Part shown: positions 2,057 to 44,343 of the stretch, piece by piece
Numbering within the stretch: position 1 is the stretch's first letter
Layout: the number at the start of each line of letters is the position of its first letter
DNA from: Escherichia coli
GTDB taxonomy: Bacteria > Pseudomonadota > Gammaproteobacteria > Enterobacterales > Enterobacteriaceae
Strand: one strand, 5' to 3'
DNA length: 64,000 bases
Assembly (NCBI RefSeq): GCF_009931435.1
Contig: NZ_CP043414.1
Notes under the pieces: model-generated
Databases searched by the model: none
Seen by the model: the letters and a program-made list of their open reading frames with translations, nothing else
Told to the model about the DNA's origin: nothing
Made by a program: the position numbers and the translations under genes

Positions 2057-2080
2057 ATGCGCCAGGATGCAGAGGTAATC

Positions 2081-4480
2081 ATGAAGCTAACCGATGCGGA
2101 TAATGCCGCCGATGGCATTTTTTTCCCCGCCCTTGAGCAAAATATGATGGGCGCGGTGTTAATTAACGAAAATGATGAAGTGATGTTTTTCAACCCCGCC
2201 GCAGAGAAGCTCTGGGGATACAAACGTGAAGAAGTCATTGGCAAAAACATTGATATGCTGATTCCGCGGGATTTGCGTCCTGCGCATCCTGAATATATCC
2301 GTCACAACCGTGAAGGCGGTAAAGCGCGCGTCGAGGGGATGAGTCGGGAGCTGCAGCTGGAGAAAAAAGACGGCAGTAAAATCTGGACCCGTTTTGCGCT
2401 ATCGAAAGTGAGCGCCGAGGGTAAAATTTATTACCTGGCGCTGGTACGTGATGCCAGCGTAGAAATGGCGCAAAAAGAACAGACCCGACAATTGATTATT
2501 GCTGTTGACCATCTCGACCGACCGGTGATTGTCCTCGATCCGGAACGCCATATTGTGCAGTGCAATCGCGCATTTACCGAAATGTTTGGTTACTGCATTA
2601 GCGAAGCCAGCGGTATGCAGCCCGATACACTCCTGAACATTCCAGAATTCCCTGCTGATAACCGCATTCGTTTACAACAGTTGCTATGGAAAACCGCCCG
2701 CGATCAGGACGAATTTCTGCTGTTGACGCGCACCGGTGAAAAAATCTGGATCAAAGCCTCTATCAGCCCGGTCTATGATGTGCTCGCACATCTGCAGAAC
2801 CTGGTAATGACTTTCTCGGATATCACCGAAGAACGGCAAATCCGCCAGCTTGAAGGCAATATTCTCGCCGCCATGTGCAGCAGCCCGCCATTTCATGAAA
2901 TGGGGGAAATCATTTGTCGTAACATCGAATCTGTTCTCAACGAATCGCATGTTTCGCTGTTCGCGCTGCGCAACGGGATGCCGATACACTGGGCGTCATC
3001 TTCGCACGGTACAGAAGTTCAAAATGCGCAAAGCTGGTCAGCGACCATTCGTCAGCGTGATGGCGCACCGGCGGGGATCCTGCAAATTAAAACCTCGTCA
3101 GGAGCAGAAACCAGCGCCTTTATCGAACGTGTGGCAGATATCAGCCAGCATATGGCCGCGCTGGCGCTGGAACAGGAAAAAAGCCGTCAGCATATTGAAC
3201 AACTCATCCAATTTGATCCGATGACCGGTCTGCCAAATCGCAATAACCTGCACAATTACCTCGATGACCTGGTCGACAAAGCCGTCTCTCCGGTGGTCTA
3301 TCTCATCGGTGTTGACCATATTCAGGATGTGATTGATAGCCTTGGCTATGCGTGGGCCGATCAGGCATTGCTGGAAGTGGTCAATCGCTTTCGTGAAAAA
3401 CTCAAACCGGATCAGTATCTCTGTCGTATCGAAGGTACGCAGTTTGTCCTCGTGAGCCTGGAAAACGACGTCAGTAACATTACCCAAATCGCCGATGAGC
3501 TACGGAATGTGGTCAGCAAGCCGATAATGATTGACGATAAACCATTCCCGCTCACCTTGAGCATTGGCATCAGCTACGACGTGGGTAAAAACCGCGATTA
3601 CCTGCTCTCCACTGCTCACAATGCAATGGATTTTATTCGCAAAAATGGCGGTAACGGCTGGCAGTTCTTCAGCCCGGTGATGAACGAAATGGTGAAAGAA
3701 CGATTGATATTAGGCGCAGCGCTGAAAGAAGCGATTAGCAATAACCAACTGAAACTGGTTTACCAACCACAAATCTTCGCAGAAACGGGTGAACTGTATG
3801 GTATCGAAGCCCTTGCTCGCTGGCACGATCCTCTGCATGGTCATGTGCCCCCTTCACGGTTTATTCCTCTCGCAGAAGAGATTGGCGAAATCGAAAATAT
3901 TGGGCGCTGGGTCATCGCGGAAGCTTGCCGTCAGTTAGCAGAATGGCGTAGCCAGAATATTCATATTCCAGCGTTATCCGTTAACTTGTCTGCGCTGCAC
4001 TTCCGCAGTAATCAGCTGCCTAATCAGGTGTCTGATGCAATGCAAGTCTGGGGCATTGACGGCCACCAGCTAACGGTGGAAATCACCGAAAGCATGATGA
4101 TGGAACACGATACGGAAATTTTTAAGCGCATCCAGATCCTGCGCGATATGGGCGTGGGTTTATCGGTAGATGATTTTGGCACGGGCTTTTCCGGATTATC
4201 CCGCTTAGTCAGTCTTCCGGTAACGGAAATCAAAATTGACAAAAGTTTTGTTGATCGTTGTCTGACGGAAAAACGCATCCTTGCCTTACTTGAAGCCATT
4301 ACCAGCATTGGGCAAAGCCTCAATTTAACCGTCGTGGCGGAAGGCGTCGAAACCAAAGAGCAATTTGAGATGCTACGTAAGATCCACTGTCGCGTTATTC
4401 AGGGATATTTCTTTTCCCGGCCCCTTCCCGCCGAAGAAATTCCAGGCTGGATGAGCAGCGTGTTACCGCTGAAAATCTGA
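2081..4480 (+). CDS. dosP: c-di-GMP phosphodiesterase DosP (PAS heme sensor + GGDEF-like + EAL)
   Basis: Track ORF 2057-4480; start placed at internal ATG 2081 (MKLTDADNA...) giving 799 aa; EAL region (QPQIFAETGELYGIEALARW) in translation. Confidence 0.92.
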   Translation: MKLTDADNAADGIFFPALEQNMMGAVLINENDEVMFFNPAAEKLWGYKREEVIGKNIDMLIPRDLRPAHPEYIRHNREGGKARVEGMSRELQLEKKDGSKIWTRFALSKVSAEGKIYYLALVRDASVEMAQKEQTRQLIIAVDHLDRPVIVLDPERHIVQCNRAFTEMFGYCISEASGMQPDTLLNIPEFPADNRIRLQQLLWKTARDQDEFLLLTRTGEKIWIKASISPVYDVLAHLQNLVMTFSDITEERQIRQLEGNILAAMCSSPPFHEMGEIICRNIESVLNESHVSLFALRNGMPIHWASSSHGTEVQNAQSWSATIRQRDGAPAGILQIKTSSGAETSAFIERVADISQHMAALALEQEKSRQHIEQLIQFDPMTGLPNRNNLHNYLDDLVDKAVSPVVYLIGVDHIQDVIDSLGYAWADQALLEVVNRFREKLKPDQYLCRIEGTQFVLVSLENDVSNITQIADELRNVVSKPIMIDDKPFPLTLSIGISYDVGKNRDYLLSTAHNAMDFIRKNGGNGWQFFSPVMNEMVKERLILGAALKEAISNNQLKLVYQPQIFAETGELYGIEALARWHDPLHGHVPPSRFIPLAEEIGEIENIGRWVIAEACRQLAEWRSQNIHIPALSVNLSALHFRSNQLPNQVSDAMQVWGIDGHQLTVEITESMMMEHDTEIFKRIQILRDMGVGLSVDDFGTGFSGLSRLVSLPVTEIKIDKSFVDRCLTEKRILALLEAITSIGQSLNLTVVAEGVETKEQFEMLRKIHCRVIQGYFFSRPLPAEEIPGWMSSVLPLKI

Positions 4481-4491
4481 CAAATTCCTCT

Positions 4492-4516
4492 CGCCCGCAC
4501 TCGCGGGTTTTCATTT
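4492..4516 (+). terminator. Rho-independent terminator after dosP
   Basis: GC stem cccgc/gcggg followed by ttttcattt just after dosP stop. Confidence 0.5.
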
Positions 4517-4737
4517 AACGTGACACTGTCACTTAAATACTGTGATTTCAGCTACGATTCCGGGAGATTCCTTCCTTAACTTCCCCTCTTGCACCAAAAC
4601 TGCACTACGCTGCACAAATGTTGATCAAAAGTTAAAAAATATAACTTTAAGCCAGCATTCTGGCGCTTATCCCGGCATGGCATGAGATCTGCATAAGCGG
4701 AAAGCGCAGCAATTTTTGTCTTATACAGGAACCGTTT

Positions 4738-5319
4738 ATGTCGGATACCACCGAACTGGTTGATTTAGCCGTGATCTTCCCTGATCTGGAGATCGAATTG
4801 AAATACGCCTGCGCTGATAACATCACAGGTAAAGCTATTTATCAGCAAGCGCGTTGTCTGTTACACAAGGATGCGATTACCGCGCTGGCGAAAAGTATCA
4901 GTATCGCCCAGCTGTCAGGCTTACAACTGGTGATTTACGATGCGTATCGCCCACAACAAGCACAGGCGATGTTGTGGCAAACCTGCCCAGACCCGCAATA
5001 TGTTGTTGATGTGACGGTCGGTTCTAATCACAGCCGTGGCACCGCGATCGACCTGACGCTTCGTGATGAGCACGGGAACATCCTCGATATGGGCGCAGAG
5101 TTCGATGAAATGCACGAACGTTCCCATGCTTACCATCCTTCCGTCCCGCCCGCCGCTCAGCGCAATCGCCTGTTGCTGAATGCGATTATGACTGGCGGTG
5201 GCTTTGTCGGTATCCCGAGCGAATGGTGGCACTTCGAATTACCCCAGGCAGCGAGTTACCCACTACTCGCTGATCAATTCACCTGTTTTATATCCCCTGG
5301 CACACAGCACGCCAGTTAA
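4738..5319 (+). CDS. ddpX: D-Ala-D-Ala dipeptidase
   Basis: 193 aa ORF, VanX-like sequence, first gene of ddp cluster. Confidence 0.9.
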   Translation: MSDTTELVDLAVIFPDLEIELKYACADNITGKAIYQQARCLLHKDAITALAKSISIAQLSGLQLVIYDAYRPQQAQAMLWQTCPDPQYVVDVTVGSNHSRGTAIDLTLRDEHGNILDMGAEFDEMHERSHAYHPSVPPAAQRNRLLLNAIMTGGGFVGIPSEWWHFELPQAASYPLLADQFTCFISPGTQHAS

Positions 5320-5332
5320 TCAGGAAACTGTC

Positions 5333-6883
5333 ATGAAGAGATCGATTTCGTTTCGTCCTACATTGCTCGCGATCGTCCTTGCCACAACAATGCCGGTTGC
5401 GCACGCCGCCGTACCGAAAGATATGCTGGTGATCGGTAAAGCTGCCGACCCACAAACCCTCGACCCGGCGGTGACAATTGATAATAACGACTGGACAGTG
5501 ACCTACCCGTCTTATCAGCGACTGGTTCAGTACAAAACGGACGGTGATAAAGGCTCAACAGACGTTGAAGGCGATCTGGCGAGTAGCTGGAAAGCGTCTG
5601 ACGATCAAAAAGAGTGGACGTTCACCCTGAAGGACAATGCTAAATTTGCCGATGGCACACCCGTCACTGCCGAAGCAGTAAAACTCTCTTTTGAGCGGTT
5701 ACTAAAAATCGGTCAGGGGCCAGCAGAAGCATTTCCCAAAGATTTAAAGATTGATGCTCCCGACGAACATACGGTGAGGTTTACCCTTAGCCAGCCATTC
5801 GCACCGTTCCTCTACACGCTGGCGAATGACGGTGCATCCATTATCAATCCGGCGGTCTTAAAAGAACATGCGGCCGATGATGCCCGTGGTTTCCTCGCGC
5901 AAAATACCGCTGGCTCCGGACCGTTTATGCTGAAAAGCTGGCAAAAAGGTCAGCAATTAGTTCTGGTGCCAAATCCGCATTACCCCGGCAATAACCCGAA
6001 CTTCAAACGGGTATCGGTAAAAATTATCGGTGAAAGTGCCTCCCGTCGCCTGCAGCTCTCCCGTGGCGACATTGACATTGCCGATGCGCTGCCGGTGGAT
6101 CAACTCAACGCCCTGAAGCAGGAAAACAAAGTCAACGTGGCAGAGTATCCGTCACTGCGCGTCACCTATCTGTATCTCAATAACAGCAAAGCGCCACTTA
6201 ATCAGGCGGATCTGCGTCGGGCCATTTCCTGGTCTACCGATTATCAGGGTATGGTTAACGGCATTCTGAGTGGTAACGGAAAACAAATGCGCGGCCCGAT
6301 TCCGGAAGGCATGTGGGGATACGATGCGACGGCAATGCAATACAACCATGACGAAACGAAAGCCAAAGCCGAATGGGATAAAGTGACGAGCAAACCCACC
6401 AGCCTGACGTTTCTCTACTCCGATAACGACCCAAACTGGGAGCCTATTGCTCTGGCAACACAATCCAGCCTCAACAAGCTGGGCATCAATGTGAAGCTGG
6501 AAAAGCTGGCGAACGCCACCATGCGCGACAGAGTGGGTAAAGGTGATTACGACATCGCGATTGGCAACTGGAGTCCGGATTTTGCCGACCCGTATATGTT
6601 TATGAATTACTGGTTTGAGTCCGACAAAAAAGGTCTGCCGGGTAACCGCTCGTTCTATGAAAACAGTGAGGTCGATAAGTTACTGCGCAATGCGCTAGCG
6701 ACCACCGACCAGACGCAGCGTACCCGGGACTACCAGCAGGCACAGAAAATCGTCATTGATGACGCTGCTTATGTGTACCTGTTCCAGAAAAACTACCAAC
6801 TGGCGATGAACAAAGAGGTGAAAGGCTTTGTGTTCAATCCCATGCTGGAACAGGTCTTCAATATCAATACCATGAGTAAATAA
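5333..6883 (+). CDS. ddpA: Periplasmic D,D-dipeptide-binding protein (ABC transporter)
   Basis: Track ORF 5198-6883; start moved to ATG 5333 (MKRSISFRPTLLAIVLATTMPVAHA signal peptide), 516 aa. Confidence 0.9.
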   Translation: MKRSISFRPTLLAIVLATTMPVAHAAVPKDMLVIGKAADPQTLDPAVTIDNNDWTVTYPSYQRLVQYKTDGDKGSTDVEGDLASSWKASDDQKEWTFTLKDNAKFADGTPVTAEAVKLSFERLLKIGQGPAEAFPKDLKIDAPDEHTVRFTLSQPFAPFLYTLANDGASIINPAVLKEHAADDARGFLAQNTAGSGPFMLKSWQKGQQLVLVPNPHYPGNNPNFKRVSVKIIGESASRRLQLSRGDIDIADALPVDQLNALKQENKVNVAEYPSLRVTYLYLNNSKAPLNQADLRRAISWSTDYQGMVNGILSGNGKQMRGPIPEGMWGYDATAMQYNHDETKAKAEWDKVTSKPTSLTFLYSDNDPNWEPIALATQSSLNKLGINVKLEKLANATMRDRVGKGDYDIAIGNWSPDFADPYMFMNYWFESDKKGLPGNRSFYENSEVDKLLRNALATTDQTQRTRDYQQAQKIVIDDAAYVYLFQKNYQLAMNKEVKGFVFNPMLEQVFNINTMSK

Positions 6884-6884
6884 C

Positions 6885-7907
6885 GTGACCTTCTGGAGTA
6901 TTTTACGCCAACGCTGCTGGGGGCTGGTGCTCGTGGTGGCGGGCGTCTGCGTGATTACGTTTATTATCTCGCACCTGATCCCCGGCGATCCGGCGCGGTT
7001 ACTGGCGGGTGACCGCGCCAGCGATGCTATCGTGGATAATATTCGCCAGCAACTGGGACTGGACCAGCCACTGTACGTACAGTTTTACCGCTACGTCAGC
7101 GACCTGTTTCAGGGTGACCTGGGAACATCCATTCGTACCGGGCGTCCGGTGCTGGAAGAGTTGCGCATATTTTTCCCGGCGACGCTGGAACTGGCATTTT
7201 GCGCTCTGCTGCTGGCACTCCTGGTTGGTATCCCGCTGGGCATACTCTCTGCAGTCTGGCGAAATCGCTGGCTGGATCATCTGGTGCGAATAATGGCCAT
7301 TACTGGAATCTCCACACCTGCGTTCTGGCTTGGGCTGGGCGTCATTGTGCTGTTTTATGGTCATCTGCAAATTCTTCCCGGCGGCGGAAGGCTTGATGAC
7401 TGGCTGGATCCACCAACGCACGTTACCGGCTTTTATCTGCTCGATGCGCTGCTTGAAGGCAACGGTGAAGTCTTCCTCAATGCGCTGCAACATCTCATCT
7501 TACCGGCATTAACGCTGGCGTTCGTTCACCTGGGGATTGTCGCTCGCCAGATCCGCTCAGCTATGCTGGAACAATTGAGTGAAGACTACATTCGTACCGC
7601 CCGGGCCAGCGGCTTGCCCGGCTGGTATATCGTTTTATGTTATGCGCTACCCAATGCGTTGATCCCCTCGATTACCGTATTGGGGCTGGCGCTGGGCGAT
7701 TTGTTGTATGGCGCAGTGCTCACCGAAACCGTTTTTGCCTGGCCCGGAATGGGTGCATGGGTAGTAACATCAATACAGGCGCTCGACTTCCCGGCAGTGA
7801 TGGGCTTTGCCGTCGTGGTTTCATTTGCTTATGTGCTGGTCAACCTGGTGGTGGATTTGCTCTATTTGTGGATTGATCCGCGTATCGGACGTGGAGGTGA
7901 TGAATGA
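6885..7907 (+). CDS. ddpB: D,D-dipeptide ABC transporter permease
   Basis: 340 aa ORF, GTG start, multiple TM segments, DppB-like. Confidence 0.9.
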   Translation: MTFWSILRQRCWGLVLVVAGVCVITFIISHLIPGDPARLLAGDRASDAIVDNIRQQLGLDQPLYVQFYRYVSDLFQGDLGTSIRTGRPVLEELRIFFPATLELAFCALLLALLVGIPLGILSAVWRNRWLDHLVRIMAITGISTPAFWLGLGVIVLFYGHLQILPGGGRLDDWLDPPTHVTGFYLLDALLEGNGEVFLNALQHLILPALTLAFVHLGIVARQIRSAMLEQLSEDYIRTARASGLPGWYIVLCYALPNALIPSITVLGLALGDLLYGAVLTETVFAWPGMGAWVVTSIQALDFPAVMGFAVVVSFAYVLVNLVVDLLYLWIDPRIGRGGDE

Positions 7908-8800
7908 TGCTAAGCGAGGAAACGTCCGTCGTACGCCCACCAAAACAAACGCGATTTAACGGTGCAAAACTGGTATGGATGCTGAAAGGCAGTCCGCTCA
8001 CCGTGACCGGCGCAGTCATCATTGTATTAATGCTACTGATGATGATTTTTTCACCGTGGCTGGCGACGCATGATCCCAACGCCATTGATTTAACTGCCCG
8101 CCTTTTGCCGCCTTCTGCGGCGCACTGGTTTGGCACCGATGAAGTGGGACGCGATCTGTTTAGCCGCGTACTGGTCGGCAGTCAGCAATCAATTCTCGCC
8201 GGATTAGTGGTGGTCGCCATTGCGGGTATGATGGGTTCGCTACTCGGGTGTCTATCCGGTGTGCTTGGCGGACGCGCAGACGCGATCATCATGCGCATCA
8301 TGGACATTATGCTGTCGATTCCTTCGCTGGTGCTGACAATGGCGCTGGCTGCCGCACTTGGACCGAGTTTGTTTAACGCCATGCTGGCGATTGCTATCGT
8401 GCGAATCCCGTTTTATGTGCGCCTGGCGCGGGGGCAAACATTAGTTGTCCGCCAGTACACTTACGTTCAGGCGGCGAAAACCTTTGGTGCGTCACGCTGG
8501 CATCTGATCAACTGGCATATTTTACGTAACTCCCTGCCGCCGCTGATTGTGCAGGCATCGCTGGATATTGGTAGCGCGATTTTAATGGCCGCCACGTTGG
8601 GATTTATTGGCCTGGGTGCTCAACAACCGAGTGCTGAATGGGGGGCGATGGTGGCGAATGGTCGCAACTATGTGCTCGATCAATGGTGGTATTGCGCATT
8701 TCCGGGGGCAGCGATTTTGCTTACCGCCGTCGGGTTCAATCTCTTTGGTGATGGTATTCGCGATCTGCTTGACCCGAAAGCAGGAGGAAAGCAGTCATGA
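7904..8800 (+). CDS. ddpC: D,D-dipeptide ABC transporter permease
   Basis: 298 aa ORF overlapping ddpB stop by 4 nt; DppC-like. Confidence 0.9.
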   Translation: MMLSEETSVVRPPKQTRFNGAKLVWMLKGSPLTVTGAVIIVLMLLMMIFSPWLATHDPNAIDLTARLLPPSAAHWFGTDEVGRDLFSRVLVGSQQSILAGLVVVAIAGMMGSLLGCLSGVLGGRADAIIMRIMDIMLSIPSLVLTMALAAALGPSLFNAMLAIAIVRIPFYVRLARGQTLVVRQYTYVQAAKTFGASRWHLINWHILRNSLPPLIVQASLDIGSAILMAATLGFIGLGAQQPSAEWGAMVANGRNYVLDQWWYCAFPGAAILLTAVGFNLFGDGIRDLLDPKAGGKQS

Positions 8801-9783
8801 CCCAACCCGTTCTGGACATTCAACAGCTGCATTTGAGTTTCTCCGGTTTTAACGGCGACGTTCACGCGCTCAACAATGTGTCATTGAAAATCAACCGCGG
8901 TGAAATTGTCGGTCTGGTGGGAGAATCCGGCTCGGGTAAATCAGTCACTGCAATGTTGATTATGCGTCTGTTACCGACGGGCAGTTATTGCGTACATCGG
9001 GGACATATTTCACTGCTGGGAGAAGATGCTCTTAACGCTCGGGAAAAACAGCTTCGTCAGTGGCGCGGCGCACGAGTGGCGATGATCTTTCAGGAACCGA
9101 TGACCGCCCTAAATCCGACACGTCGAATAGGTCTTCAGATGATGGACGTGATCCGCCATCATCAACCAATAAGTCGTCGGGAAGCCAGAGCTAAAGCGAT
9201 TGCCCTGCTGGAAGAGATGCAAATCCCGGATGCCGTGGAAGTTATGTCGCGCTATCCGTTTGAGCTTTCAGGTGGTATGCGCCAGCGGGTAATGATTGCG
9301 CTGGCATTCTCCTGCGAGCCGCAATTGATTATTGCCGACGAACCGACTACGGCGCTGGACGTCACGGTACAGTTGCAGGTACTGCGTCTGCTTAAACATA
9401 AAGCCCGCGCCAGTGGAACTGCGGTACTGTTCATCAGCCATGATATGGCCGTGGTGTCGCAACTGTGCGATAGCGTTTACGTGATGTATGCCGGAAGCGT
9501 GATCGAGAGCGGTATGACGGCAGACGTTATCCATCATCCCCGGCATCCGTATACCATTGGTTTGCTGCAATGCGCACCGGAACATGGAATACCACGCCAG
9601 CCATTACCCGCCATTCCAGGGACGGTACCAAACCTCACCCATTTGCCTGATGGCTGCGCTTTTCGCGATCGTTGCTATGCGGCAGGTACACAGTGTGAAA
9701 ACGTCCCGGCGCTGACAGCGTGTGGTGACAACAACCACCGCTGCGCCTGTTGGTATCCTCAGCAGGAGGTCATTAGTGTCTGA
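8797..9783 (+). CDS. ddpD: D,D-dipeptide ABC transporter ATP-binding protein
   Basis: 328 aa; Walker A GESGSGKS and signature LSGGMRQR. Confidence 0.9.
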   Translation: MTQPVLDIQQLHLSFSGFNGDVHALNNVSLKINRGEIVGLVGESGSGKSVTAMLIMRLLPTGSYCVHRGHISLLGEDALNAREKQLRQWRGARVAMIFQEPMTALNPTRRIGLQMMDVIRHHQPISRREARAKAIALLEEMQIPDAVEVMSRYPFELSGGMRQRVMIALAFSCEPQLIIADEPTTALDVTVQLQVLRLLKHKARASGTAVLFISHDMAVVSQLCDSVYVMYAGSVIESGMTADVIHHPRHPYTIGLLQCAPEHGIPRQPLPAIPGTVPNLTHLPDGCAFRDRCYAAGTQCENVPALTACGDNNHRCACWYPQQEVISV

Positions 9784-10702
9784 CACGTTATTAACGTTAC
9801 GCGACGTCCATATCAATTTCCCGGCCCGAAAAAACTGGCTTGGTAAAACTACGGAACATGTTCATGCCATCAATGGTATTGATTTACAGATCCGTCGTGG
9901 TGAAACCTTAGGGATCGTCGGTGAGTCAGGCTGCGGCAAAAGCACCCTCGCACAGCTTTTAATGGGTATGCTGCAACCGAGCCACGGGCAGTACATCCGT
10001 TCAGGATCACAACGCATTATGCAGATGGTGTTTCAGGACCCGCTCTCTTCGCTTAATCCGCGCTTACCGGTGTGGCGCATCATCACGGAACCGCTCTGGA
10101 TTGCTAAGCGTAGTAGTGAACAACAGCGGCGAGCGTTGGCAGAGGAGCTGTCTGTGCAGGTGGGTATTCGTCCGGAGTATCTCGACCGCTTGCTTCATGC
10201 GTTCTCAGGCGGGCAGCGGCAACGTATCGCCATTGCCAGAGCACTCTCTTCGCAGCCTGACCTGATTGTGCTTGATGAACCCACCTCGGCGCTGGATATC
10301 TCCGTGCAGGCGCAGATCCTCAATTTACTGGTAACGCTACAGGAAAATCGCGAGCTGACTTATGTGCTGATTTCACACAATGTCTCGGTGATACGTCATA
10401 TGAGCGATCGGGTGGCGGTGATGTATCTCGGACAGATTGTGGAACTAGGAGACGCGCAACAGGTGCTGACAGCTCCGGCACATCCATACACCCGATTATT
10501 GCTGGATTCCCTCCCCGCCATTGATAAACCGCTGGAGGAAGAATGGGCATTGCGTAAAACGGATCTACCAGGAAACCGCACGTTGCCACAAGGCTGTTTT
10601 TTCCGTGAACGTTGCCCTCTGGCAACCCACGGATGTGAAGTCCGGCAATCATTAACAATAAGGGAGGACGGACGTGAGATCCGGTGCTGGCGGGCGCTGT
10701 AG
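9776..10702 (+). CDS. ddpF: D,D-dipeptide ABC transporter ATP-binding protein
   Basis: Track ORF 9722-10702; GTG start at 9776 (V/MSDTLLTLRDV) gives 308 aa; Walker A GESGCGKS, signature FSGGQRQR; overlaps ddpD by 8 nt. Confidence 0.85.
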   Translation: MSDTLLTLRDVHINFPARKNWLGKTTEHVHAINGIDLQIRRGETLGIVGESGCGKSTLAQLLMGMLQPSHGQYIRSGSQRIMQMVFQDPLSSLNPRLPVWRIITEPLWIAKRSSEQQRRALAEELSVQVGIRPEYLDRLLHAFSGGQRQRIAIARALSSQPDLIVLDEPTSALDISVQAQILNLLVTLQENRELTYVLISHNVSVIRHMSDRVAVMYLGQIVELGDAQQVLTAPAHPYTRLLLDSLPAIDKPLEEEWALRKTDLPGNRTLPQGCFFRERCPLATHGCEVRQSLTIREDGREIRCWRAL

Positions 10703-10712
10703 AGACGCTAAC

Positions 10713-10755
10713 AACGCATCAGGCAATCACGCGCCTGACGCGTCATCCGGCAACG
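10713..10755. repeat. REP-like palindromic element between convergent ddpF and osmC
   Basis: gcgcctgacgcgtcatccggca resembles REP consensus (GCCGGATG...). Confidence 0.35.
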
Positions 10756-10757
10756 CT

Positions 10758-11189
10758 TTACGATTTCAACTGGTAATCAAGCGTAATTTCAGCTTTCAGT
10801 ACCTGAGAAACCGGGCATCCTGCTTTTGCTTTCTGGATAATGCCGTCAAAAGTAGAGGCATCAATACCCGGCACCGCAACTTCGCTCTTCAGTGCGATTT
10901 TAGTAATCGCAAACCCGGCATCCACTTTATCCAGCGACACATCGGCGGTGGTATCAATCGATGTGGGCGTGAATCCTGCTTCCCCCAGCATTAATGAAAG
11001 CGCCATTGAGAAACATGCTGCATGCGCCGCGCCAATTAGTTCTTCAGGGTTAGTTCCTTTTTCGCCTTCAAAACGCGTATTAAATCCATACGGCTGTTGG
11101 TTCAGTACGCCGCTCTCGGTGGAAACGGTTCCCTTCCCGCGTTTGATATCGCCTTCCCAGTGTGCCTGACCTTTCTTATGGATTGTCAT
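10758..11189 (-). CDS. osmC: Osmotically inducible peroxiredoxin OsmC
   Basis: 143 aa ORF MTIHKKGQAHWEGDIKRGKG... Confidence 0.92.
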   Translation of the reverse strand: MTIHKKGQAHWEGDIKRGKGTVSTESGVLNQQPYGFNTRFEGEKGTNPEELIGAAHAACFSMALSLMLGEAGFTPTSIDTTADVSLDKVDAGFAITKIALKSEVAVPGIDASTFDGIIQKAKAGCPVSQVLKAEITLDYQLKS

Positions 11190-11532
11190 TGTTGCTCTCC
11201 TGTGGGCTTAAAAAGGAAATTATAGACTACGTGAGAAACAGCATGAGGATAAGCGGGATATTCCGAATAGAATCCGGCGAAAATATTATCTATGTACTTA
11301 AATAAAATTTCCACAATAGATAACCGGGAATATATAACTCAAGAGATATTGCATCAATATCAATCAACTCACACCAATAATATTCCCATTAATATCATGG
11401 AGTTAAAATATAAAAATCATCAACCAGGACTAATCTTAACAACGAAGCGGCAAATATTTGCCATGCTGAATGTGCTTTATAAATCTGCGATCCGTAGCAG
11501 ACACCATAAATACACAGACACGGAGAATCACT

Positions 11533-11748
11533 ATGTTTACTTATTATCAGGCAGAAAATTCAACAGCAGAACCCGCTCTGGTTAATGCCATTGAGCAAGG
11601 CCTTCGGGCAGAACACGGTGTTGTCACTGAAGATGACATTCTCATGGAGCTGACCAAATGGGTGGAAGCTTCTGATAACGACATCCTCAATGATATCTAC
11701 CAGCAAACGATCAATTATGTGGTCAGTGGCCAGCACCCTACGCTTTAA
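11533..11748 (+). CDS. bdm: Biofilm-dependent modulation protein
   Basis: Track ORF 11470-11748; internal ATG 11533 (MFTYYQAENSTAEPALV...) gives 71 aa. Confidence 0.8.
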   Translation: MFTYYQAENSTAEPALVNAIEQGLRAEHGVVTEDDILMELTKWVEASDNDILNDIYQQTINYVVSGQHPTL

Positions 11749-11849
11749 GGTGCTATGCTTGATCGGCAACCTAATTTAGGGGTTTAGCACGTGTTTCTTC
11801 GCTACGGCGATGTTGTCCTTAAAACTAGCAACAGGATTGAGGAGTTAAA

Positions 11850-11987
11850 ATGAAATCGAACCGTCAGGCACGTCATATTCTTGGACTGGACCATAAAATT
11901 TCTAACCAGCGCAAAATAGTTACCGAAGGTGACAAATCCAGCGTGGTAAATAACCCAACCGGCAGAAAACGCCCCGCTGAAAAGTAA
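11850..11987 (+). CDS. sra: Stationary-phase ribosome-associated protein Sra (RpsV)
   Basis: 45-codon ORF (below track cutoff) hand-translated [45 protein letters not shown]; SD ggag upstream. Confidence 0.8.
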
Positions 11988-12143
11988 TTCATAACCATCA
12001 GTCCTCAATGACGATTAAACACCATTGCCTGCGCAATGGTGTTTTTGTTTTTAACTGCTTTATACTTGGAGCCGACGCCCTGGCGGTAAAGCAAAGACGA
12101 TAAAAGCACCCCAGGGATGGATATTCAAAAAAGAGTGAGTGAC

Positions 12144-13841
12144 ATGGAACCAAAAACAAAAAAACAGCGTTCGCTTTATATTCCTTACGCTGGCCCTGTA
12201 CTGTTGGAATTTCCGTTGTTGAATAAAGGCAGTGCCTTCAGCATGGAAGAACGCCGTAACTTCAACCTGCTGGGGTTACTGCCGGAAGTGGTCGAAACCA
12301 TCGAAGAACAAGCGGAACGCGCATGGATCCAGTATCAGGGATTCAAAACCGAAATCGACAAACACATCTACCTGCGTAACATCCAGGACACCAACGAAAC
12401 CCTCTTCTACCGTCTGGTAAACAATCATCTTGATGAGATGATGCCTGTTATTTATACCCCAACCGTCGGCGCAGCCTGTGAGCGTTTTTCTGAGATCTAC
12501 CGCCGTTCACGCGGCGTGTTTATCTCTTACCAGAACCGCCACAATATGGACGATATTCTGCAAAACGTGCCGAACCATAATATTAAAGTGATTGTGGTGA
12601 CTGACGGCGAACGTATTCTGGGGCTTGGTGACCAGGGCATCGGCGGGATGGGCATTCCGATCGGTAAACTGTCGCTCTATACCGCTTGTGGCGGCATCAG
12701 CCCGGCGTATACCCTTCCGGTGGTGCTGGATGTCGGGACGAATAACCAACAGCTGCTTAACGATCCGCTGTATATGGGCTGGCGTAATCCACGTATTACT
12801 GACGACGAATACTATGAATTCGTTGATGAATTTATCCAGGCTGTGAAACAACGCTGGCCGGACGTGCTGTTGCAGTTTGAAGACTTCGCACAAAAAAATG
12901 CGATGCCGTTACTTAACCGCTATCGCAATGAAATTTGTTCTTTTAACGATGACATTCAGGGCACCGCGGCGGTAACGGTAGGCACGCTGATCGCAGCAAG
13001 TCGCGCGGCAGGTGGTCAGTTAAGCGAGAAAAAGATTGTCTTCCTCGGCGCAGGTTCAGCGGGATGCGGCATTGCCGAAATGATCATTGCCCAGACTCAG
13101 CGTGAAGGATTAAGCGAGGAAACGGCGCGGCAGAAAGTCTTTATGGTCGATCGCTTTGGTCTGCTCACCGACAAGATGCCGAATCTGCTGCCTTTCCAGA
13201 CTAAACTGGTGCAGAAGCGCGAAAATCTCAGTGACTGGGATACTGACAGCGATGTGCTGTCACTGCTTGATGTGGTGCGCAATGTCAAACCGGATATTCT
13301 GATTGGCGTCTCAGGACAGACCGGGCTGTTTACGGAAGAGATCATCCGTGAGATGCACAAACACTGTCCGCGTCCGATCGTGATGCCGCTGTCTAACCCG
13401 ACTTCACGTGTGGAAGCCACACCGCAGGACATTATCGCCTGGACCGAAGGTAACGCGCTGGTCGCCACCGGCAGTCCGTTTAATCCGGTGGTATGGAAAG
13501 ATAAAATCTACCCCATCGCCCAGTGTAACAACGCCTTCATTTTCCCTGGCATCGGGCTGGGTGTTATTGCTTCCGGCGCGTCACGTATCACCGATGAGAT
13601 GCTGATGTCGGCAAGTGAAACGCTTGCTCAATATTCGCCGCTGGTCCTGAACGGCGAAGGTCTGGTACTGCCGGAACTGAAAGATATTCAGAAAGTCTCC
13701 CGCGCAATTGCGTTTGCGGTTGGCAAAATGGCGCAGCAGCAAGGCGTGGCGGTGAAAACCTCCGCCGAAGCTCTGCAACAGGCCATTGATGATAACTTCT
13801 GGCAAGCCGAATACCGCGACTACCGCCGTACATCCATCTAA
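12144..13841 (+). CDS. maeA: NAD-dependent malic enzyme
   Basis: Track ORF 12117-13841; start at ATG 12144 ([18 protein letters not shown]...) gives 565 aa. Confidence 0.93.
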
Positions 13842-15170: not shown

Positions 15171-15449
15171 ATGATAATGAATTTCAGACACAAGGGATTG
15201 CGTGACTTGTTTCTTCTCGGCAAAACCTCCGGCGTTATACCGACGCAAATCAAACGATTACGCCACCGACTCGCTGTGATTGATGCAGCAAGCTGTCTTG
15301 CTGATCTCGATATGCCCGGTTACCGACTACACCCGTTAAGCGGCGATCGTGATGGAATTTGGGCGATATCTGTCTCGGGCAACTGGCGAATCACATTTGA
15401 ATTCGTCAATGGCGATGCATACATACTGGATTACGAGGACTATCACTGA
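15171..15449 (+). CDS. HigB-family (plasmid-maintenance killer type) toxin
   Basis: 92 aa; sequence pattern ([10 protein letters not shown] ... [20 protein letters not shown]) typical of HigB toxins; stop overlaps start of downstream HTH gene. Confidence 0.7.
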
Positions 15450-15733
15450 TGAAAATGGCCAATCATCCCCGCCCGGGGGACATTATTCAGGAATCACTGG
15501 ACGAACTTAATGTCAGCCTGCGCGAGTTTGCCAGAGCAATGGAAATTGCGCCCTCAACGGCAAGCCGATTGCTGACCGGAAAAGCCGCGTTGACGCCAGA
15601 AATGGCGATTAAACTTTCCGTGGTGATCGGCAGTTCGCCGCAAATGTGGCTGAATCTACAAAACGCCTGGAGTCTGGCAGAGGCAGAAAAAACGGTAGAT
15701 GTGTCGCGATTACGCCGTCTGGTTACGCAATAA
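15449..15733 (+). CDS. yddM: HigA-family HTH (XRE-type) antitoxin / putative regulator
   Basis: 94 aa; HTH region [34 protein letters not shown]; toxin-first HigBA arrangement; gene symbol from K-12 synteny (memory). Confidence 0.7.
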
Positions 15734-15961: not shown

Positions 15962-16615
15962 TTATATCCCTTCTTCACTCTCTTTTTTCGCTTCTGCCTT
16001 TTCGATTTCACGATACCAGCGTGGATGGTGTTTCTTCGCCCAACGACGGCTCACCTTCCCTTCGATCATCCCTTTAATCGACCCTTTCACCCAGAATGCC
16101 ATATACATATGGATCAGGATGGCGTGGATCAGGATGATACCCGCAGCCGCGTGAATAAACAGGCTATAACGGACAACCTGTATCGGGAAGTACTGCGCAA
16201 AGTACGGACGCCAGATAATCACCCCGGTTACCAGCAGCACGAAAATCATGCTCATGATCGACCAGAACATCATCTTTTGCCCGGCGTTGTACTTACCAAC
16301 ATCCGCCACTTTGTGTTCATTGCCTTTTAATACTTCGACAATGTTCAACAGCCACGGAATATCTTTCTTATCCGGGATGTTGTGATGCACAAAACGCACA
16401 AACATAAACATCAGCGCGACGAAAATCGCAATGCCGAAGAACGGGTGCAAAATGCGTCCCATCTGCGGCGTACCGAAGGTTTGTGTCAGCCATTGCAGCG
16501 TCGGGAAGAAGAACGAAATCCCGGACAGCGCTACCAGGAAGAAGCAAATCACCACGGTCCAGTGACAGGCGCGATCAATAAACTTGGTGCGCACAATCAT
16601 TTTCGACTTACTCAT
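15962..16615 (-). CDS. fdnI: Formate dehydrogenase-N gamma (cytochrome b556) subunit
   Basis: Track ORF 15962-16657; start ATG at 16615 ([19 protein letters not shown]...) gives 217 aa; overlaps fdnH stop. Confidence 0.9.
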
Positions 16616-17492
16616 GATGATCCTCCTCGTCATCGTCCACTTCCTTATTCGGGCCAATACCGATGTAGTGGAAAATTAACCCGGCAAAAGTGGCGATAAA
16701 GCCAGCCGCTGCCAGCGGTTTCAACGCGCCTTTCCACAGATTTACCGATGTATCGATCTTCGGATCTTTCGGCAGACCGTGATACAGCTCCGGCTGATCG
16801 GCGTGATGCAGCACGTACATGACGTGCGTACCACCGACCCCTTCCGGATTGTAGACACCAGCATGTTCGTAACCACGCGCTTTCAGTTTCGCCACGCGCT
16901 GTTCCGCCAGCTCCAGCATCTCCTTCTTGGTGCCGAAGTGGATAGCCCCGGTCGGACAAGTTTTCACACAAGCCGGTTCCTGACCAACGCTGACGCGATC
17001 GACGCAGAGTGTGCATTTATATACCCGGTTATCCTCTTTGTTGAGGCGTGGAATATTAAACGGACACCCGGCAATGCAGTAACCACAGCCGATGCAGTTT
17101 TCCGACTGGAAATCGACAATCCCGTTAGCGTACTGAATGATCGCACCAGCAGACGGGCACGCCTTCAGGCAGCCCGGATCTTCACAGTGCATACAACCGT
17201 CTTTACGGATCAGCCACTCCAGCTTGCCGTTCTGTTCGGTTTCGCTAAAGCGCATCACCGTCCAGGACTTGGCGCTCAGATCGGCGGGGTTATCATAAAC
17301 CCCGACGCAGTGCCCCACTTCATCACGGATATCGTTCCACTCCGAACACGCCACCTGACAGGCTTTACAGCCGATACAGGTGGAAACGTCGATAAGTTTC
17401 GCGACTTCTGCTTTGTAATCACGCACCTGAGAAGGCGGCGTGATGGAGTTAGTTGCGGACCTTTTGATAATGTCCTGCGTTTCCATAGCCAT
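16608..17492 (-). CDS. fdnH: Formate dehydrogenase-N beta (4Fe-4S) subunit
   Basis: 294 aa; multiple CxxCxxCxxxCP ferredoxin motifs. Confidence 0.93.
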
Positions 17493-17504
17493 CTGTTCGC
17501 CCCC

Positions 17505-20500
17505 TTACGCCTTCTCGATGTTGACTAAGAACGCTTTATATTCCGGCGTTTGCGAGTTTGCATCACCGACATTCGGCGTCAGAGTGTTAGCGATATAACC
17601 TTTACGCGCGACACCCTCAAAGCCCCAGTGGATTGGAATACCCACCGTTTCAACCTGCTGACCGTTTACATTCAGTGGTTTCAGACGGCGCGTTACCACA
17701 GCCACCGCGCGGATAAAGCCACGCTTGCTGGAGACAGTGACACGATCGCCATTGGCAATGCCTTTCGCCGCCGCCAGCGTTTCGCTGATTTCCACAAACT
17801 GTTCCGGCTGAGCAATTGCGTTGAGCAACGCGTGCTTGGTCCAGGTGTGGAAGTGCTCGGTCAGACGGTAGGTCGTACCCACATACGGGAACTGCTCTTT
17901 TTTACCCATCCGCAGCGCGTCTTGTTCATACAGACGAACCACCGGGTTAGACACCACGTTCGGATGCAGCGGGTTAGTGCCCAGCGGCGTTTCAATTGGC
18001 TCGTAGTGTTCCGGGAACGGACCTTCCGCCATTTTGTTGATGGCAAACAGGCGTCCCATCCCTTCCGGCTGCATGATAAACGGCCCGGTTGGCGTACCCG
18101 GTGCGGCATTGCCGAAGTCCGGAATATCGTTACCCGTCCACTTGCTGCCGTTCCACTGGATCAGCATCCGTTTCGGATCCCAAGGTTTACCGTTGATATC
18201 CGCCGAAGCACGGTTGTACAGCACGCGACGGTTGAGCGGCCACGCCCAGGCCCATCCCAGCGTATTCCCCAGACCGGACGGGTCGGAGTTATCGCGGTTG
18301 GCCATCTGGTTGCCCTGCTCTGTCCAGCTACCGGTGTAGATCCAGCAAGAAGATGCGGTTGTACCGTCATCACGCAGATGCGCAAAGCTACTCAGCAACT
18401 GCCCTTTCTTCGCAATCAGTACGCCATTAGCGTCATAGAGATCTTCCAGCGCATAGCCGTTATTCTCTTTCGCCACTTCGTCAGACTGCGGTTCGTGCGG
18501 CTGCTTGTAGTTCCAGCTCATCTTCATCAGCGGTTCTACGCCTTTACCACCTTCGGCCTGGTACAGCTCGCGCAGATGATGGTAGATACCCGCCAGAATT
18601 TCGCCGTCATTACGCGCTTCGCCCGGCGCATCCTGACCTTTCCAGTGCCACTGCAACCAGCGACCGGAGTTAGCGATAGAACCATCTTCTTCGGCAAAGC
18701 AGGTCGAAGGCAGACGGAATACTTCAGTCTGAATAGACGCCGGATCGACATCGTTCGACTCGCCGTGGTTCTGCCAGAAGGTGGAGGTTTCAGTCACCAG
18801 CGGATCGATAACCACCATGTACTTCAGCTTGCTCAGGCAGCTCACCACTTTGTTTTTGTCCGGGAAGGACGCAACCGGGTTAAAGCCCTGGCAGAAATAA
18901 CCGGTGACTTTACCTTCATCCATCATGTTGAAATACTTGATGACGTCGTAGGTCTGGTCCCACTTGGGCAGCCAGTCGTAGCCCCAGTTGTTCTCTTTCT
19001 GCGCAGCATCGCCGTAGAAAGATTTCATCAGGCTAACGAAGAACTTCGGATAGTTGCTCCAGTAGTTCACCTGATCAGCCAGCGTCGCTTTCGGCGTGTT
19101 CGCTTCCAGATACGACTGCAAATCAACCTGTTTTTCTGACGGCAGCGTCAGATAACCCGGCAGGCTGGTAGAGAGCAGACCTAAGTCAGTCAGGCCCTGA
19201 ATGTTGGAGTGACCACGCAATGCGTTCACGCCGCCACCAGCCATACCCATGTTACCGAGCAGCAACTGGATCATCGCCATAGTACGGATGTTCTGCGCAC
19301 CCACGGTGTGTTGGGTCCAGCCCAGCGCGTACAGGAAGGTGGTTGTGCGATCCGGCGCGCTGGTGGAGGCCAGCACTTCACATACTTTCAGGAAGTCAGC
19401 TTTTGGCGTACCGCAGATGTTTTCTACTACGTCCGGCGTGTAACGGGAAACGTGCGCTTTCAGCAAGTTCCACACACAGCGCGGATGGGTCAGTGTTTCA
19501 TCGCGTTTCGCATAGCCATTTTCATCGAACTGATAGTTCCAGGACGACTTATCGTACTGACGTTTTTCAGCGTCATAACCGCTGAACAGGCCGTCTTCAA
19601 AAGTAAAATCATCACGCACCAGCAGGCTGGCGTTGGTGTAATGCTTAACGTATTCGGCGTTGATCTTGTTGTTTTCGATCAGGTAGCGCAAAACGCCAGA
19701 CAGGAACGTAATGTCCGTACCGGAACGAATAGGTGCGTAGATATCCGCCACAGAAGCGGTACGCGTAAAACGGGGATCGACAACGATCAAGGTTGCATCG
19801 TTGTTGTTTTTCGCTTCCATCGCCCAGCGAAAACCGACGGGATGCGCTTCAGCAGCGTTACCGCCCATCACCATTACGACGTTAGCGTTTTTGATATCCA
19901 CCCAGTGGTTGGTCATTGCACCGCGACCAAATGTTGGAGCAAGACTTGCTACCGTTGGTCCGTGTCAGACGCGCGCCTGGTTGTCTACCGCCAGCATCCC
20001 GAGGGAGCGGGCAAATTTCTGTGTCAGCATCCCGGTTTCGTTGCTGGCACCGGAAGCACACAGCATACCGGTAGAAAGCCAACGGTTTACCGTTACGCCC
20101 TGCTCATTCTTTTCAATAAAGTTAGCGTCACGGTCTGCCTTCATCAGCTTCGCAATGCGGGAGAATGCTTCTTCCCAGCTAATGCGCTGCCATTTGTCAG
20201 AACCTGGCGCACGATATTCCGGGTAGCGCAGACGGTTTTCGCTGTTGACGTAATCCAGCAATCCGGCCCCTTTCGGGCACAGCGCACCACGGCTTACCGG
20301 ATGATCCGGGTCACCTTCAATGTGATAAATCGCTTCTCTGGCGTTTTTCGCGCCATCACCCAGGCTATACATCAATAGCCCGCAACCTACGGAACAGTAT
20401 GTACAAGTGTTACGGATCTCTTTCGCGCGTAATAATTTGTAGTTTCGCGCCTGAGCCAGTGCTTGCTTCGGGGCAAAGCCCAATGCCGCGACTGTTGTTC

Positions 20501-20552
20501 CCGCCATACCGCCCGCGCAGATTTTAAAAAATTGTCTGCGACTGACGTCCAT
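17505..20552 (-). CDS. fdnG: Formate dehydrogenase-N alpha subunit (selenocysteine-containing molybdoenzyme)
   Basis: Two in-frame track ORFs (19965-20552 and 17505-19916) joined through an in-frame TGA at 19965-19967; Tat signal MDVSRRQFFKICAGGMAG; total 1015 codons including Sec. Confidence 0.93.
19917..19967 (-). promoter_or_regulatory. Selenocysteine UGA codon with immediately downstream SECIS-like hairpin region in fdnG mRNA
   Basis: In-frame TGA flanked by conserved ...VDNQARV-U-HGPTVASLA... context; palindromic agcaag/cttgct immediately 3' of UGA. Confidence 0.6.
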
Positions 20553-32849: not shown

Positions 32850-33544
32850 TGCAGATCCTCAAAGTGATCGGCCTGTTGATGGAGTACCCGGACGAGCTGT
32901 TGTGGGAGTGTAAGGACGACGCGCTGGCATTAATCCGCCGCGACGCGTCGATGCTCACCGATTTTGCACTCGACCTGCTCAACGCGCCGCTGCTGGATAA
33001 ACAGGCCGAATGGTGTGAAGTGTTCGACCGCGGGCGCACCACGTCGCTGCTGCTGTTCGAACATGTTCATGCCGAATCCCGCGATCGAGGCCAGGCAATG
33101 GTGGACCTGCTGGCGGAGTATGAAAAGGTCGGTCTGCAACTGGATTGTCGGGAACTGCCCGATTATCTGCCGCTGTACCTGGAGTACTTAAGTGTGCTGC
33201 CGGACGATCAGGCAAAAGAAGGATTACTCAACGTTGCGCCGATCCTCGCCCTGCTTGGCGGACGCTTAAAACAACGCGAGACACCGTGGTACGCGTTATT
33301 TGACGCCCTTTTGCAACTGGCAGGAAGTCCCCTGTCAAGTGACAGTGTCACAAAACAAATTCGTAGTGAAGAGCGTGACGACACCCGCCAGGCGCTGGAT
33401 GCGGTGTGGGAAGAAGAACAGGTGAAGTTTATTGAAGATAACGCCACGGCGTGTGACAGCTCGCCGCTTAATCAATATCAGCGACGTTTTAGCCAGGATG
33501 TCGCGCCGCAGTACGTCGACATCAGTGCGGGAGGTGGGAAATGA
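32849..33544 (+). CDS. narW: Nitrate reductase 2 assembly chaperone (delta)
   Basis: 231 aa, NarJ-like. Confidence 0.9.
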
Positions 33545-34221
33545 TTCAGTATCTGAACGTCTTTTTTTACGATATCTACCCGTACATTTGTGCGACGGTG
33601 TTTTTCCTTGGCAGCTGGCTGCGCTATGACTACGGGCAGTATACCTGGCGCGCCTCCTCGAGCCAGATGCTCGATAAACGCGGGATGGTGATATGGTCGA
33701 ATCTGTTCCATATCGGCATTCTGGGGATCTTCTTCGGTCATCTGTTCGGCATGTTAACACCGCACTGGATGTACGCGTGGTTTTTACCAGTGGCAGCGAA
33801 ACAACTGATGGCAATGGTGCTCGGCGGTATTTGCGGCGTGTTGACGTTGATTGGCGGTGCAGGACTGCTGTGGCGCAGGCTGACAAATCAGCGTGTGCGT
33901 GCTACTTCCACCACGCCGGATATCATCATCATGAGCATATTGCTGATCCAATGTTTGTTGGGGCTAAGTACCATACCGTTTTCAGCACAGTATCCTGATG
34001 GTAGCGAAATGATGAAACTGGTGGGTTGGGCGCAAAGTATCGTCACTTTCCGTGGAGGATCGTCAGAAATGCTTAACGGCGTAGCGTTCGTCTTCCGCCT
34101 GCATCTGGTATTGGGAATGACCATCTTCCTGCTCTTTCCGTTCACCCGACTGGTGCACGTGTGGAGCGCGCCTTTTGAGTACTTTACTCGTCGGCACCAG
34201 ATTGTGCGCTCGCGGCGATAA
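33541..34221 (+). CDS. narV: Respiratory nitrate reductase 2 gamma (cytochrome b) subunit
   Basis: 226 aa, 5 TM segments, overlaps narW by 4 nt. Confidence 0.92.
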
Positions 34222-37993: not shown

Positions 37994-38069
37994 ATCACTG
38001 ACAGCGTGTTATTAATTCACTCTGGTGTTATATAACAAAAATATCCCCTCCTGTTTTCACCTCTTTGTA

Positions 38070-40012: not shown

Positions 40013-40024
40013 AAAAAAATCTCA

Positions 40025-44277: not shown

Positions 44278-44343
44278 GATTCAATTCCTTCTTCTGTTTA
44301 TTTTTAATGCTTGTTTGTTACTGAATACCGAACAGGTACGGGA

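Follow-up and report, generated by a model that had tools for sequence, protein, structure and literature searches.

Stop/start overlaps in the ddp, nar, fdn and ydc operons of Escherichia coli are real and ordinary, and their geometry suggests translational coupling

Overlapping stop and start codons recur in four operons (ddp, nar, fdn and ydc) of a 64,000-nt stretch of the E. coli chromosome (hereafter the window; the reverse of K-12 1.51-1.57 Mb), which raises the question of whether they mark correctly assigned gene starts and coupled translation. Gene coordinates were carried over from strain RMDEC465 by blastn of RefSeq CDSs, and K-12 was compared via its annotation table. The eight overlaps listed in the original prediction could all be read directly in the sequence at the claimed lengths, in agreement with RefSeq and K-12 MG1655, and the distances at all eight junctions were identical in the closest genome (PGAP) and in the K-12 MG1655 annotation. 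They are real, ordinary and already known, Huber et al. 2023 having already listed the eight pairs with identical distances in a supplementary table, so the prediction was also right not to claim novelty. It needed correction on three points. Its title put the coupling, which is read from geometry, too firmly. The interval to which it had assigned the overlaps (4738-10702) spans ddpX to ddpF only, one operon out of four, the other five junctions lying at 16.6, 31.3-33.5 and 59.7 kb, and the claim that tight coupling runs throughout the operons was wrong, as seven further junctions in or beside them have no overlap (0 to +94 nt).

The ddpXABCDF operon (D,D-dipeptide ABC transporter; 4738-10702, plus strand) comprised ddpX (4738-5319), ddpA (5333-6883), ddpB (6885-7907), ddpC (7904-8800), ddpD (8797-9783) and ddpF (9776-10702). 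The RefSeq CDSs of the ddp genes matched at 98-100% identity over their full length with internal stops absent, and the stretch 4000-12000 had 95-99% nucleotide identity to nearly all E. coli genomes. Like DppABCDF/OppABCDF, to which they are homologous, the ddpABCDF products are a binding protein, a pair of permeases and a pair of ATPases, the composition of a Dpp/Opp-type peptide ABC importer, with DdpF aligning to OppF and DppF at E=1.6e-72 and 1.5e-69. Two of its junctions did not overlap, ddpX/ddpA (+13 nt) and ddpA/ddpB (+1 nt), ddpB having an SD-less GTG start 1 nt past the ddpA stop. The ddpB/ddpC and ddpC/ddpD junctions each shared a 4-nt ATGA, the former at 7904-7907 (ddpB TGA 7905-7907, ddpC ATG 7904) with the SD GGAGG at 7893-7897, 6 nt 5' of the ATG, and the latter at 8797-8800 (ddpC TGA 8798-8800, ddpD ATG 8797) with the SD AGGAGG at 8782-8787 (-10.3 kcal/mol), the only ddpD start candidate to have one. 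At ddpD/ddpF, the 8-nt overlap GTGTCTGA (9776-9783) contained the ddpD TGA (9781-9783) and the GTG start of ddpF (9776), preceded by AGGAGG at 9764-9769. Expression of the genes as one operon from the ddpX promoter has been described (PMC8743547). No sigma-70-like promoter was found on the plus strand between 4300 and 11400; internal promoters in ddp were rejected for want of a promoter-like site on the coding strand, and internal terminators likewise, hairpins occurring at chance level (9 compared to 7.1 expected).

The narZYWV operon (27568-34221, plus strand) encodes nitrate reductase Z, its products being orthologous to the E. coli subunits already characterised, and comprised narZ (27568-31308), narY (31305-32849), narW (32849-33544) and narV (33541-34221). 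All three of its internal junctions overlapped: narZ/narY by a 4-nt ATGA (31305-31308; SD AGGAGG 31292-31297), narY/narW by the single shared base 32849 of a TAATG, the TAA being the narY stop (SD GGAGG 32837-32841), and narW/narV by a 4-nt ATGA that includes the narW TGA (33541-33544; SD GGAGG 33530-33534). The narU/narZ junction beside the operon was separated by +94 nt.

The two remaining operons lie on the minus strand. The fdnGHI operon (15962-20552; fdnG 17505-20552, fdnH 16608-17492, fdnI 15962-16615) encodes formate dehydrogenase-N, and fdnG contained one in-frame TGA (selenocysteine) and a SECIS element at 19912-19970 (SECIS_3, 83.8 bits). While fdnG/fdnH had a gap of +12 nt, fdnH (TAA) and fdnI (ATG) overlapped by the 8 nt ATGAGTAA (16608-16615), with AGGAGG at 16622-16627. 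The ydcSTUV-patD cluster (57423-62771), which includes the genes of the YdcSTUV ABC transporter and was also placed by blastn transfer of RefSeq CDSs, comprised ydcS (61626-62771), ydcT (60595-61608), ydcU (59653-60594), ydcV (58869-59663) and patD (57423-58847). Its only overlap was the 11-nt ATGCACTCTGA (59653-59663) between the ydcU TGA and the ydcV ATG, the other junctions being at +17 nt (ydcS/ydcT), 0 nt (ydcT/ydcU) and +21 nt (ydcV/patD).

The original prediction took the overlaps as support for the chosen start sites, and this held up. SD strength was measured as the anti-SD duplex energy in the 20 nt 5' of each start, values of <= -10 kcal/mol being considered strong. At seven of the eight overlapping starts, the upstream ORF carried a strong SD (GGAGG or AGGAGG, -10.0 to -11.8 kcal/mol) close to its 3' end, 6-9 nt ahead of the start codon, the exception being ydcV, whose SD was moderate only (GGGAG, 59670-59674, -6.5 kcal/mol). 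Such values were reached by only one of the 1732 ATG/GTG triplets lying inside genes on the coding strands compared to the 7/8 overlap starts (binomial P ~1e-22), and the other 38 gene starts in the window had a median of -6.0 kcal/mol (Mann-Whitney p=1.4e-4 against the overlap starts). When the candidate starts of each gene were enumerated, the overlapping one was the sole candidate backed by an SD.

The overlaps could nevertheless be artefacts of annotation, if gene finders had chosen the most upstream start and the true starts lay downstream, leaving no overlap. Six of the genes (ddpC, ddpD, narY, narW, narV and ydcV) are indeed annotated at the first possible start after an in-frame stop, and ddpC has a second in-frame ATG 3 nt downstream, at 7907. 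That alternative would still overlap the stop by 1 nt, the downstream candidates in general had no SD (0 to -5 kcal/mol), and ddpF and fdnI are not annotated on their longest ORF. Protein N-termini agreed with the annotation as well. NarY 1-506 aligned to NarH 1-506 (E=2.2e-293), from residue 1 onwards, and NarV 2-225 to NarI 1-224 (E=8e-109), residue 2 of the former corresponding to residue 1 of the latter; FdnI 1-217 aligned over its full length to 1kqf chain C 1-217 with two substitutions (E=2.7e-146). DdpC residues 28-293 aligned to DppC 27-298 (8z1v_B, E=3.6e-68) and YdcV 19-260 to PotC 16-255, the N-terminal lengths thus being within 1-3 residues of each other. For ddpF, the N-terminal proteomics put forward as a check by the original prediction is already published: in K-12, the peptide MSDTLLTLR maps to the GTG start (PMC13245402), and the DdpF N-terminus in the window is the same; a second DdpF N-terminus has been reported at codon 7. 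Among the matches listed from TRAINSPOTTER N-terminomics, ddpF alone was present out of ddpF, ddpD, narY, narV, fdnI and ydcV, absence being uninformative in a dataset with 688 annotated starts detected overall. The SD enumeration and structural alignments thus largely refuted a longest-ORF artefact, which is considered extremely improbable, and the annotation has the downstream starts right.

With the overlaps genuine and the four operons known, we infer from the geometry that coupling by termination-reinitiation is likely at these junctions. A ribosome finishing the upstream cistron would unfold the local mRNA, and the ribosome or its 30S subunit would be recaptured by the SD and reinitiate at the adjacent start codon. 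If termination-reinitiation operates at a junction, downstream translation would therefore follow upstream translation, which would help the fixed-ratio synthesis of complex subunits, namely the permease pair and the ATPase pair, NarZ/Y/V with the chaperone NarW, and FdnH/I. The features expected of the termination-reinitiation class were largely present: the two genes of each pair are neighbours in the same orientation and read as a single transcription unit from the gene map (for ddp, also from the promoter scan and PMC8743547); seven junctions (-1, -4 and -8) fall within the distance of about -8 to +6 nt, ydcU/ydcV at -11 being just outside; and an SD, contributory in E. coli, lies inside each upstream ORF, strong at seven of the eight and moderate for ydcV. 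In a survey of 1,695 genera, the same COG pairs are typically spaced at -4 to -0.1 nt (Huber et al. 2023 supplement), and experiments on other E. coli pairs showed that reinitiation needs a short distance and usually an SD too (Huber et al.). The junctions at -4/-1 are probably the most tightly coupled, and those at -8 and -11 less so. In reporter studies, longer overlaps lower coupling efficiency, with a faster fall-off beyond -4 nt (reviewed by Brown & Wade 2025), and coupling at the -8 and -11 junctions is less certain for this reason.

The pairs studied by Huber et al. 2019, 2023 and Brown & Wade 2025 show the same -4 (ATGA), -1 (TAATG) and -8 spacings with an SD in the upstream ORF, and likewise encode subunits of heteromeric complexes. 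The experiments of Huber et al. used pairs other than the present eight, namely hyfH-hyfI, ydbH-ynbE, menD-menH, bioB-bioF and others, and ydcU/ydcV at -11 lies outside the -8 to +10 class that these authors treat as predictive. In K-12 MG1655, ddpXABCDF, narZYWV, fdnGHI and ydcSTUV are identical to the loci of the window in gene content, gene order, start codons and intergenic distances. Differences elsewhere in the window were at strain level only, and concerned an rhs/vgrG island, LRR genes, the presence of higB, and mnaT/ydcZ. Two 1-nt overlaps on the plus strand were absent from the original prediction, higB/yddM at 15449 (TGATG) and mnaT/ydcZ at 56095 (TGATGA), the latter being a 4-nt overlap in K-12 that a single SNP converts from -4 to the -1 of the present strain. 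Close or overlapping pairs were not enriched in the window, 11 of 31 same-strand pairs being at -8 to +6 nt compared to 24% E. coli-wide (707/2987; PMC10666635; binomial p=0.094).

Coupling has to be weighed against the possibility that the overlaps are compact packing, with de novo ribosomes initiating at each gene's own strong internal SD irrespective of upstream translation. The SDs at seven of the eight starts are very strong and could suffice alone, and of the five E. coli pairs that Huber et al. 2019 put to the test, one (bioB/bioF) was initiated de novo. The other four were coupled, however, and the ydcV SD is only moderate. In dpp/opp, a D/F overlap is kept as in ddp (dppD/F -4, oppD/F -4), whereas the B/C and C/D junctions, which overlap in ddp, have 9-14 nt spacers containing SDs and are thought to be independent. 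As dpp/opp work with gaps of +9 to +14 at B/C and C/D, overlap is not required in the Dpp/Opp transporter family. Local folding predictions pointed the other way, as the overlap starts had a predicted opening energy (-15 to +5) of 8.6 kcal/mol compared to 6.0 for independent starts (p=0.023; n=8, local folding only), and were thus as structured as random intragenic sites (9.0 kcal/mol) and no more open. These predicted closed start regions fit a dependence on the upstream ribosome, and independent initiation is regarded as somewhat unlikely.

Still less likely is a neutral origin, in which overlaps drift by point mutation and are kept as harmless, unselected for coupling or stoichiometry. It would account for the mnaT/ydcZ SNP and for the exact geometry differing between paralogues. 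The narGHJI overlaps are kept at the equivalent junctions (narG/H -4, narH/J -4, narJ/I -1), yet the -1/-4 lengths are swapped in narZYWV (narY/W -1, narW/V -4), where the junction SDs are also stronger; fdoH/I is at -4 compared to -8 for fdnH/I, with the same +12 gap at fdoG/H as at fdnG/H; and, relative to potFGHI, potH/I is at -4 and ydcU/V at -11. Against this stand the overlapping or abutting state of the same COG pairs, kept across old duplications and phyla, the strong SDs kept within coding sequence, and the 4.5-fold enrichment of overlapping pairs for heteromeric complex subunits, all of which also count in favour of coupling. The differences between junctions could also be read as graded design, overlap length and SD strength forming a readable code of subunit stoichiometry. 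Under such a code, the SD-less ddpB GTG may throttle reinitiation and keep the binding protein in excess over the membrane subunits, very strong SDs at the -4/-1 junctions may hold core subunits at 1:1, and the -8/-11 junctions may give lower ratios or allow a second proteoform. This proposal is unlikely, standing between independent initiation and neutral drift in plausibility.

The overlaps make no open question testable, and past quality control they matter little: they confirm that gene starts and operon boundaries were soundly assigned in the window. Their -4/-1/-8 spacings are the textbook classes that dominate prokaryotic operons for multi-subunit complexes. At most, the four operons would be natural test cases relating overlap length (-1, -4, -8 and -11) and SD strength to reinitiation efficiency.

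Eight start/stop overlaps were read in the sequence, with the same distances in the PGAP and K-12 annotations: ddpB/ddpC (ATGA, 4 nt, 7904-7907), ddpC/ddpD (ATGA, 4 nt, 8797-8800), ddpD/ddpF (GTGTCTGA with a GTG start, 8 nt, 9776-9783), narZ/narY (ATGA, 4 nt, 31305-31308), narY/narW (TAATG, 1 nt, 32849) and narW/narV (ATGA, 4 nt, 33541-33544) on the plus strand, and fdnH/fdnI (ATGAGTAA, 8 nt, 16608-16615) and ydcU/ydcV (ATGCACTCTGA, 11 nt, 59653-59663) on the minus strand. These are the overlaps named in the original prediction, and all of them exist as claimed. It had also placed all four operons at 4738-10702, a range that takes in ddpX to ddpF only, and had described coupling throughout, whereas seven junctions have no overlap: ddpX/ddpA (+13 nt from upstream stop to downstream start), ddpA/ddpB (+1), fdnG/fdnH (+12), ydcS/ydcT (+17), ydcT/ydcU (0), ydcV/patD (+21) and narU/narZ (+94). 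At ddpA/ddpB (TAA C GTG, 6883-6887, plus strand), the GTG start has almost no Shine-Dalgarno (SD) sequence (-2.2 kcal/mol), and ddpB, if efficiently translated at all, probably relies on ribosomes from ddpA. Overall, the interpretation was essentially right and over-generalised, and "tight" coupling at the eight junctions is an assumption.

The window corresponds, in reverse complement, to ~1.51-1.57 Mb of K-12 and extends from dosC to ydcR, as the annotation of its best match (strain RMDEC465) and of K-12 MG1655 shows. Its 4000-12000 segment was matched in 5,414 of 5,426 complete E. coli genomes, nearly all at 95-99% identity (best 99.4%). RefSeq CDSs were placed by blastn, and the relevant genes were full length, began and ended at the codons expected of them and had no internal stops, except for the known selenocysteine TGA of fdnG. 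This single in-frame TGA, adjoined by an Rfam SECIS_3 element (83.8 bits; 19912-19970, minus strand), causes the ORF list to split fdnG into 17505-19916 and 19965-20552. Intact copies were also found of maeA (12144-13841, plus strand) and ydcT (60595-61608, minus strand), annotated in RMDEC465 as pseudogenes with internal stops.

For each downstream gene, every in-frame ATG, GTG or TTG from the upstream in-frame stop to +90 nt was scored for pairing to the 16S 3' end. The overlapping start was the sole candidate with a real SD in all eight genes (-10.0 to -11.8 kcal/mol for seven, -6.5 for ydcV), bar a second ddpC ATG 3 nt downstream, which has the same SD and still overlaps the stop codon by 1 nt; the remaining downstream candidates ranged from ~0 to -5.9 kcal/mol. 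At the seven starts with a strong SD, the motif sits within the upstream ORF. The SDs at the eight starts were stronger than those at 38 other window starts (median -6.0; Mann-Whitney p = 1.4e-4), and of the 1732 intragenic ATG/GTG triplets on the coding strands, just one had an SD of -10 kcal/mol or below. That one, AGGAGGAATG at 59081 (minus strand), lies in frame inside ydcV, 70 codons from its end, and is probably not functional, its SD abutting the ATG at too short a spacing. The overlaps could otherwise be the product of a longest-ORF rule, an explanation ruled out because the chosen starts of ddpF and fdnI are not those of the longest ORF.

N-terminal proteomics had been proposed as a check, and published K-12 deformylation-assisted N-terminomics (PMC13245402) place the peptide MSDTLLTLR at the annotated ddpF GTG (NC_000913, 1558036-1558038); the DdpF N-terminus in the window is the same. 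The same table lists a second DdpF N-terminus at codon 7, an ACG recoded as Met (peptide MLRDVHINFPAR; PMC13245402), where the window codons (9776-9830, plus strand) are as published. Moreover, residues 1-217 of FdnI aligned with the Fdn-N structure (1kqf, chain C), NarY 1-506 with NarH 1-506, NarV 2-225 with NarI 1-224, DdpC 28-293 with DppC 27-298, YdcV 19-260 with PotC 16-255, and DdpF 5-289 with OppF 11-313. The claim that the overlaps support the chosen starts is thus borne out by SD strength, candidate starts, paralogue and structure alignments and the ddpF peptide. Elsewhere, DosP would be 807 aa long if translated from an in-frame ATG at 2057 (dosP, 2057-2083, plus strand) that directly abuts the dosC stop; the ATG annotated as its start, at 2081, is preceded by a stronger SD (-7.1 vs -3.3 kcal/mol).

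Ten of the 31 same-strand neighbour pairs in the window overlap. Two that the original prediction did not list are mnaT/ydcZ (-1) and higB/yddM (1 nt, TGATG, 15449, plus strand), the latter formed by a higB-like RelE/ParE toxin gene (15171-15449) and yddM/higA (15449-15733), of which the K-12 annotation has yddM only. Genome-wide, 707 of 2,987 E. coli pairs (24%) fall in the -8 to +6 class (PMC10666635), and the excess in the window (11/31) was not significant (p = 0.094). The overlaps had been described as not novel, and indeed these exact K-12 pairs and distances are listed in a published supplementary table (PMC10666635). The accompanying survey of 1,695 genera (Huber et al. 2023; PMC10666635) lists the corresponding COG pairs at -4 to -0.1 nt (NarG>NarH, NarH>NarJ and NarJ>NarI, -1 each; FdnH-like>FdnI and DppD>DppF, -4 each; DppB>DppC, -0.1; PotB>PotC, -3.1). 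The pairs are thus already on record, and the feature is ordinary and known.

Concerning mechanism, the computed energy to open positions -15 to +5 at the overlap starts (median 8.6 kcal/mol) equalled that at random intragenic positions (9.0) and exceeded that of independently initiated genes (6.0; p = 0.023). A terminating ribosome would melt local mRNA structure around the overlap start, and the ribosome or 30S subunit, held by the SD, would reinitiate at the adjacent start codon. In other E. coli pairs, experiments show coupling that falls off sharply as the distance grows and in most cases requires an SD, although one pair in five tested initiated de novo. According to a 2025 review (Brown & Wade), efficiency is best from -4 to +3 and drops faster with longer overlap than with longer spacing; the -8 (ddpD/ddpF, fdnH/fdnI) and -11 (ydcU/ydcV) junctions are therefore the less secure ones.

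On the plus strand of 4300-11400, no sigma-70-like promoter matches were found and terminator-like hairpins were at chance level. A GC hairpin with a T-run directly follows dosP (4493-4508, plus strand), and a sigma-54-type -24/-12 element (TGGCAT-N5-CTGCA, GAGAT spacer; 4678-4694, plus strand) lies ~45 nt upstream of ddpX; this agrees with the published dependence of the ddpXABCDF operon on NtrC/RpoN (PMC8743547). Under nitrogen depletion, ddpX mRNA rose 104-fold and ddpF mRNA only 2.2-fold (PMC8743547), which suggests strong mRNA-level polarity within the operon.

Outside these operons, a variable vgrG-rhs island (37271-46488, minus strand) stands in place of the K-12 rhsE remnant and of the RMDEC465 sulfatase/GGDEF genes, with at least 80% of the stretch covered in only 91 of 5,426 genomes. 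It holds vgrG (44344-46488), an Rhs core that is a single 1384-aa CDS in strain 19KM1776 and is divided here between two ORFs (41209-44277 and 40025-41320), each in its own frame, a DDE/ISAs1 transposase fragment (38195-38977) and two ORFs without a Pfam match (39563-40012 and 37271-37993). The window has intact copies of two tandem leucine-rich-repeat genes (23195-25760, plus strand; 417 and 416 aa), which are annotated as frameshifted pseudogenes in RMDEC465 and represented in K-12 by just yddK and a yddJ pseudogene. pptA was not found in the window by blastn.

Among paralogous E. coli operons, the distances are -4, -4 and -1 in narGHJI, +12 and -4 in fdoGHI (then -4 at fdoI/fdhE), +9, +10 and -4 in dppBCDF, +14, +11 and -4 in oppBCDF, and +9 and -4 in potGHI. 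The SDs at the three narZYWV junctions (-10.3, -10.0 and -11.6 kcal/mol; 31285-33540, plus strand) are stronger than their K-12 narGHJI equivalents (-7.4, -5.8 and -9.5 kcal/mol; locus L005, 4585-6850). Overlapping E. coli pairs are 4.5-fold enriched for subunits of heteromeric complexes, which fits all four operons. Between two ATPase genes, between two permease genes and between beta and gamma genes, the overlap state, though not its exact length, has been kept through old duplications. At mnaT/ydcZ (56090-56100, plus strand), the window has ATCTGATGAATC (TGATGA), a 1-nt overlap, and K-12 has ATTGGATGAATC (GGATGA; locus L003, 9329-9332), a 4-nt overlap; one T/G difference shifts the mnaT stop one codon, to the next TGA in K-12, turning -1 into -4. 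Overlap lengths interconvert easily, as this pair illustrates within the species.
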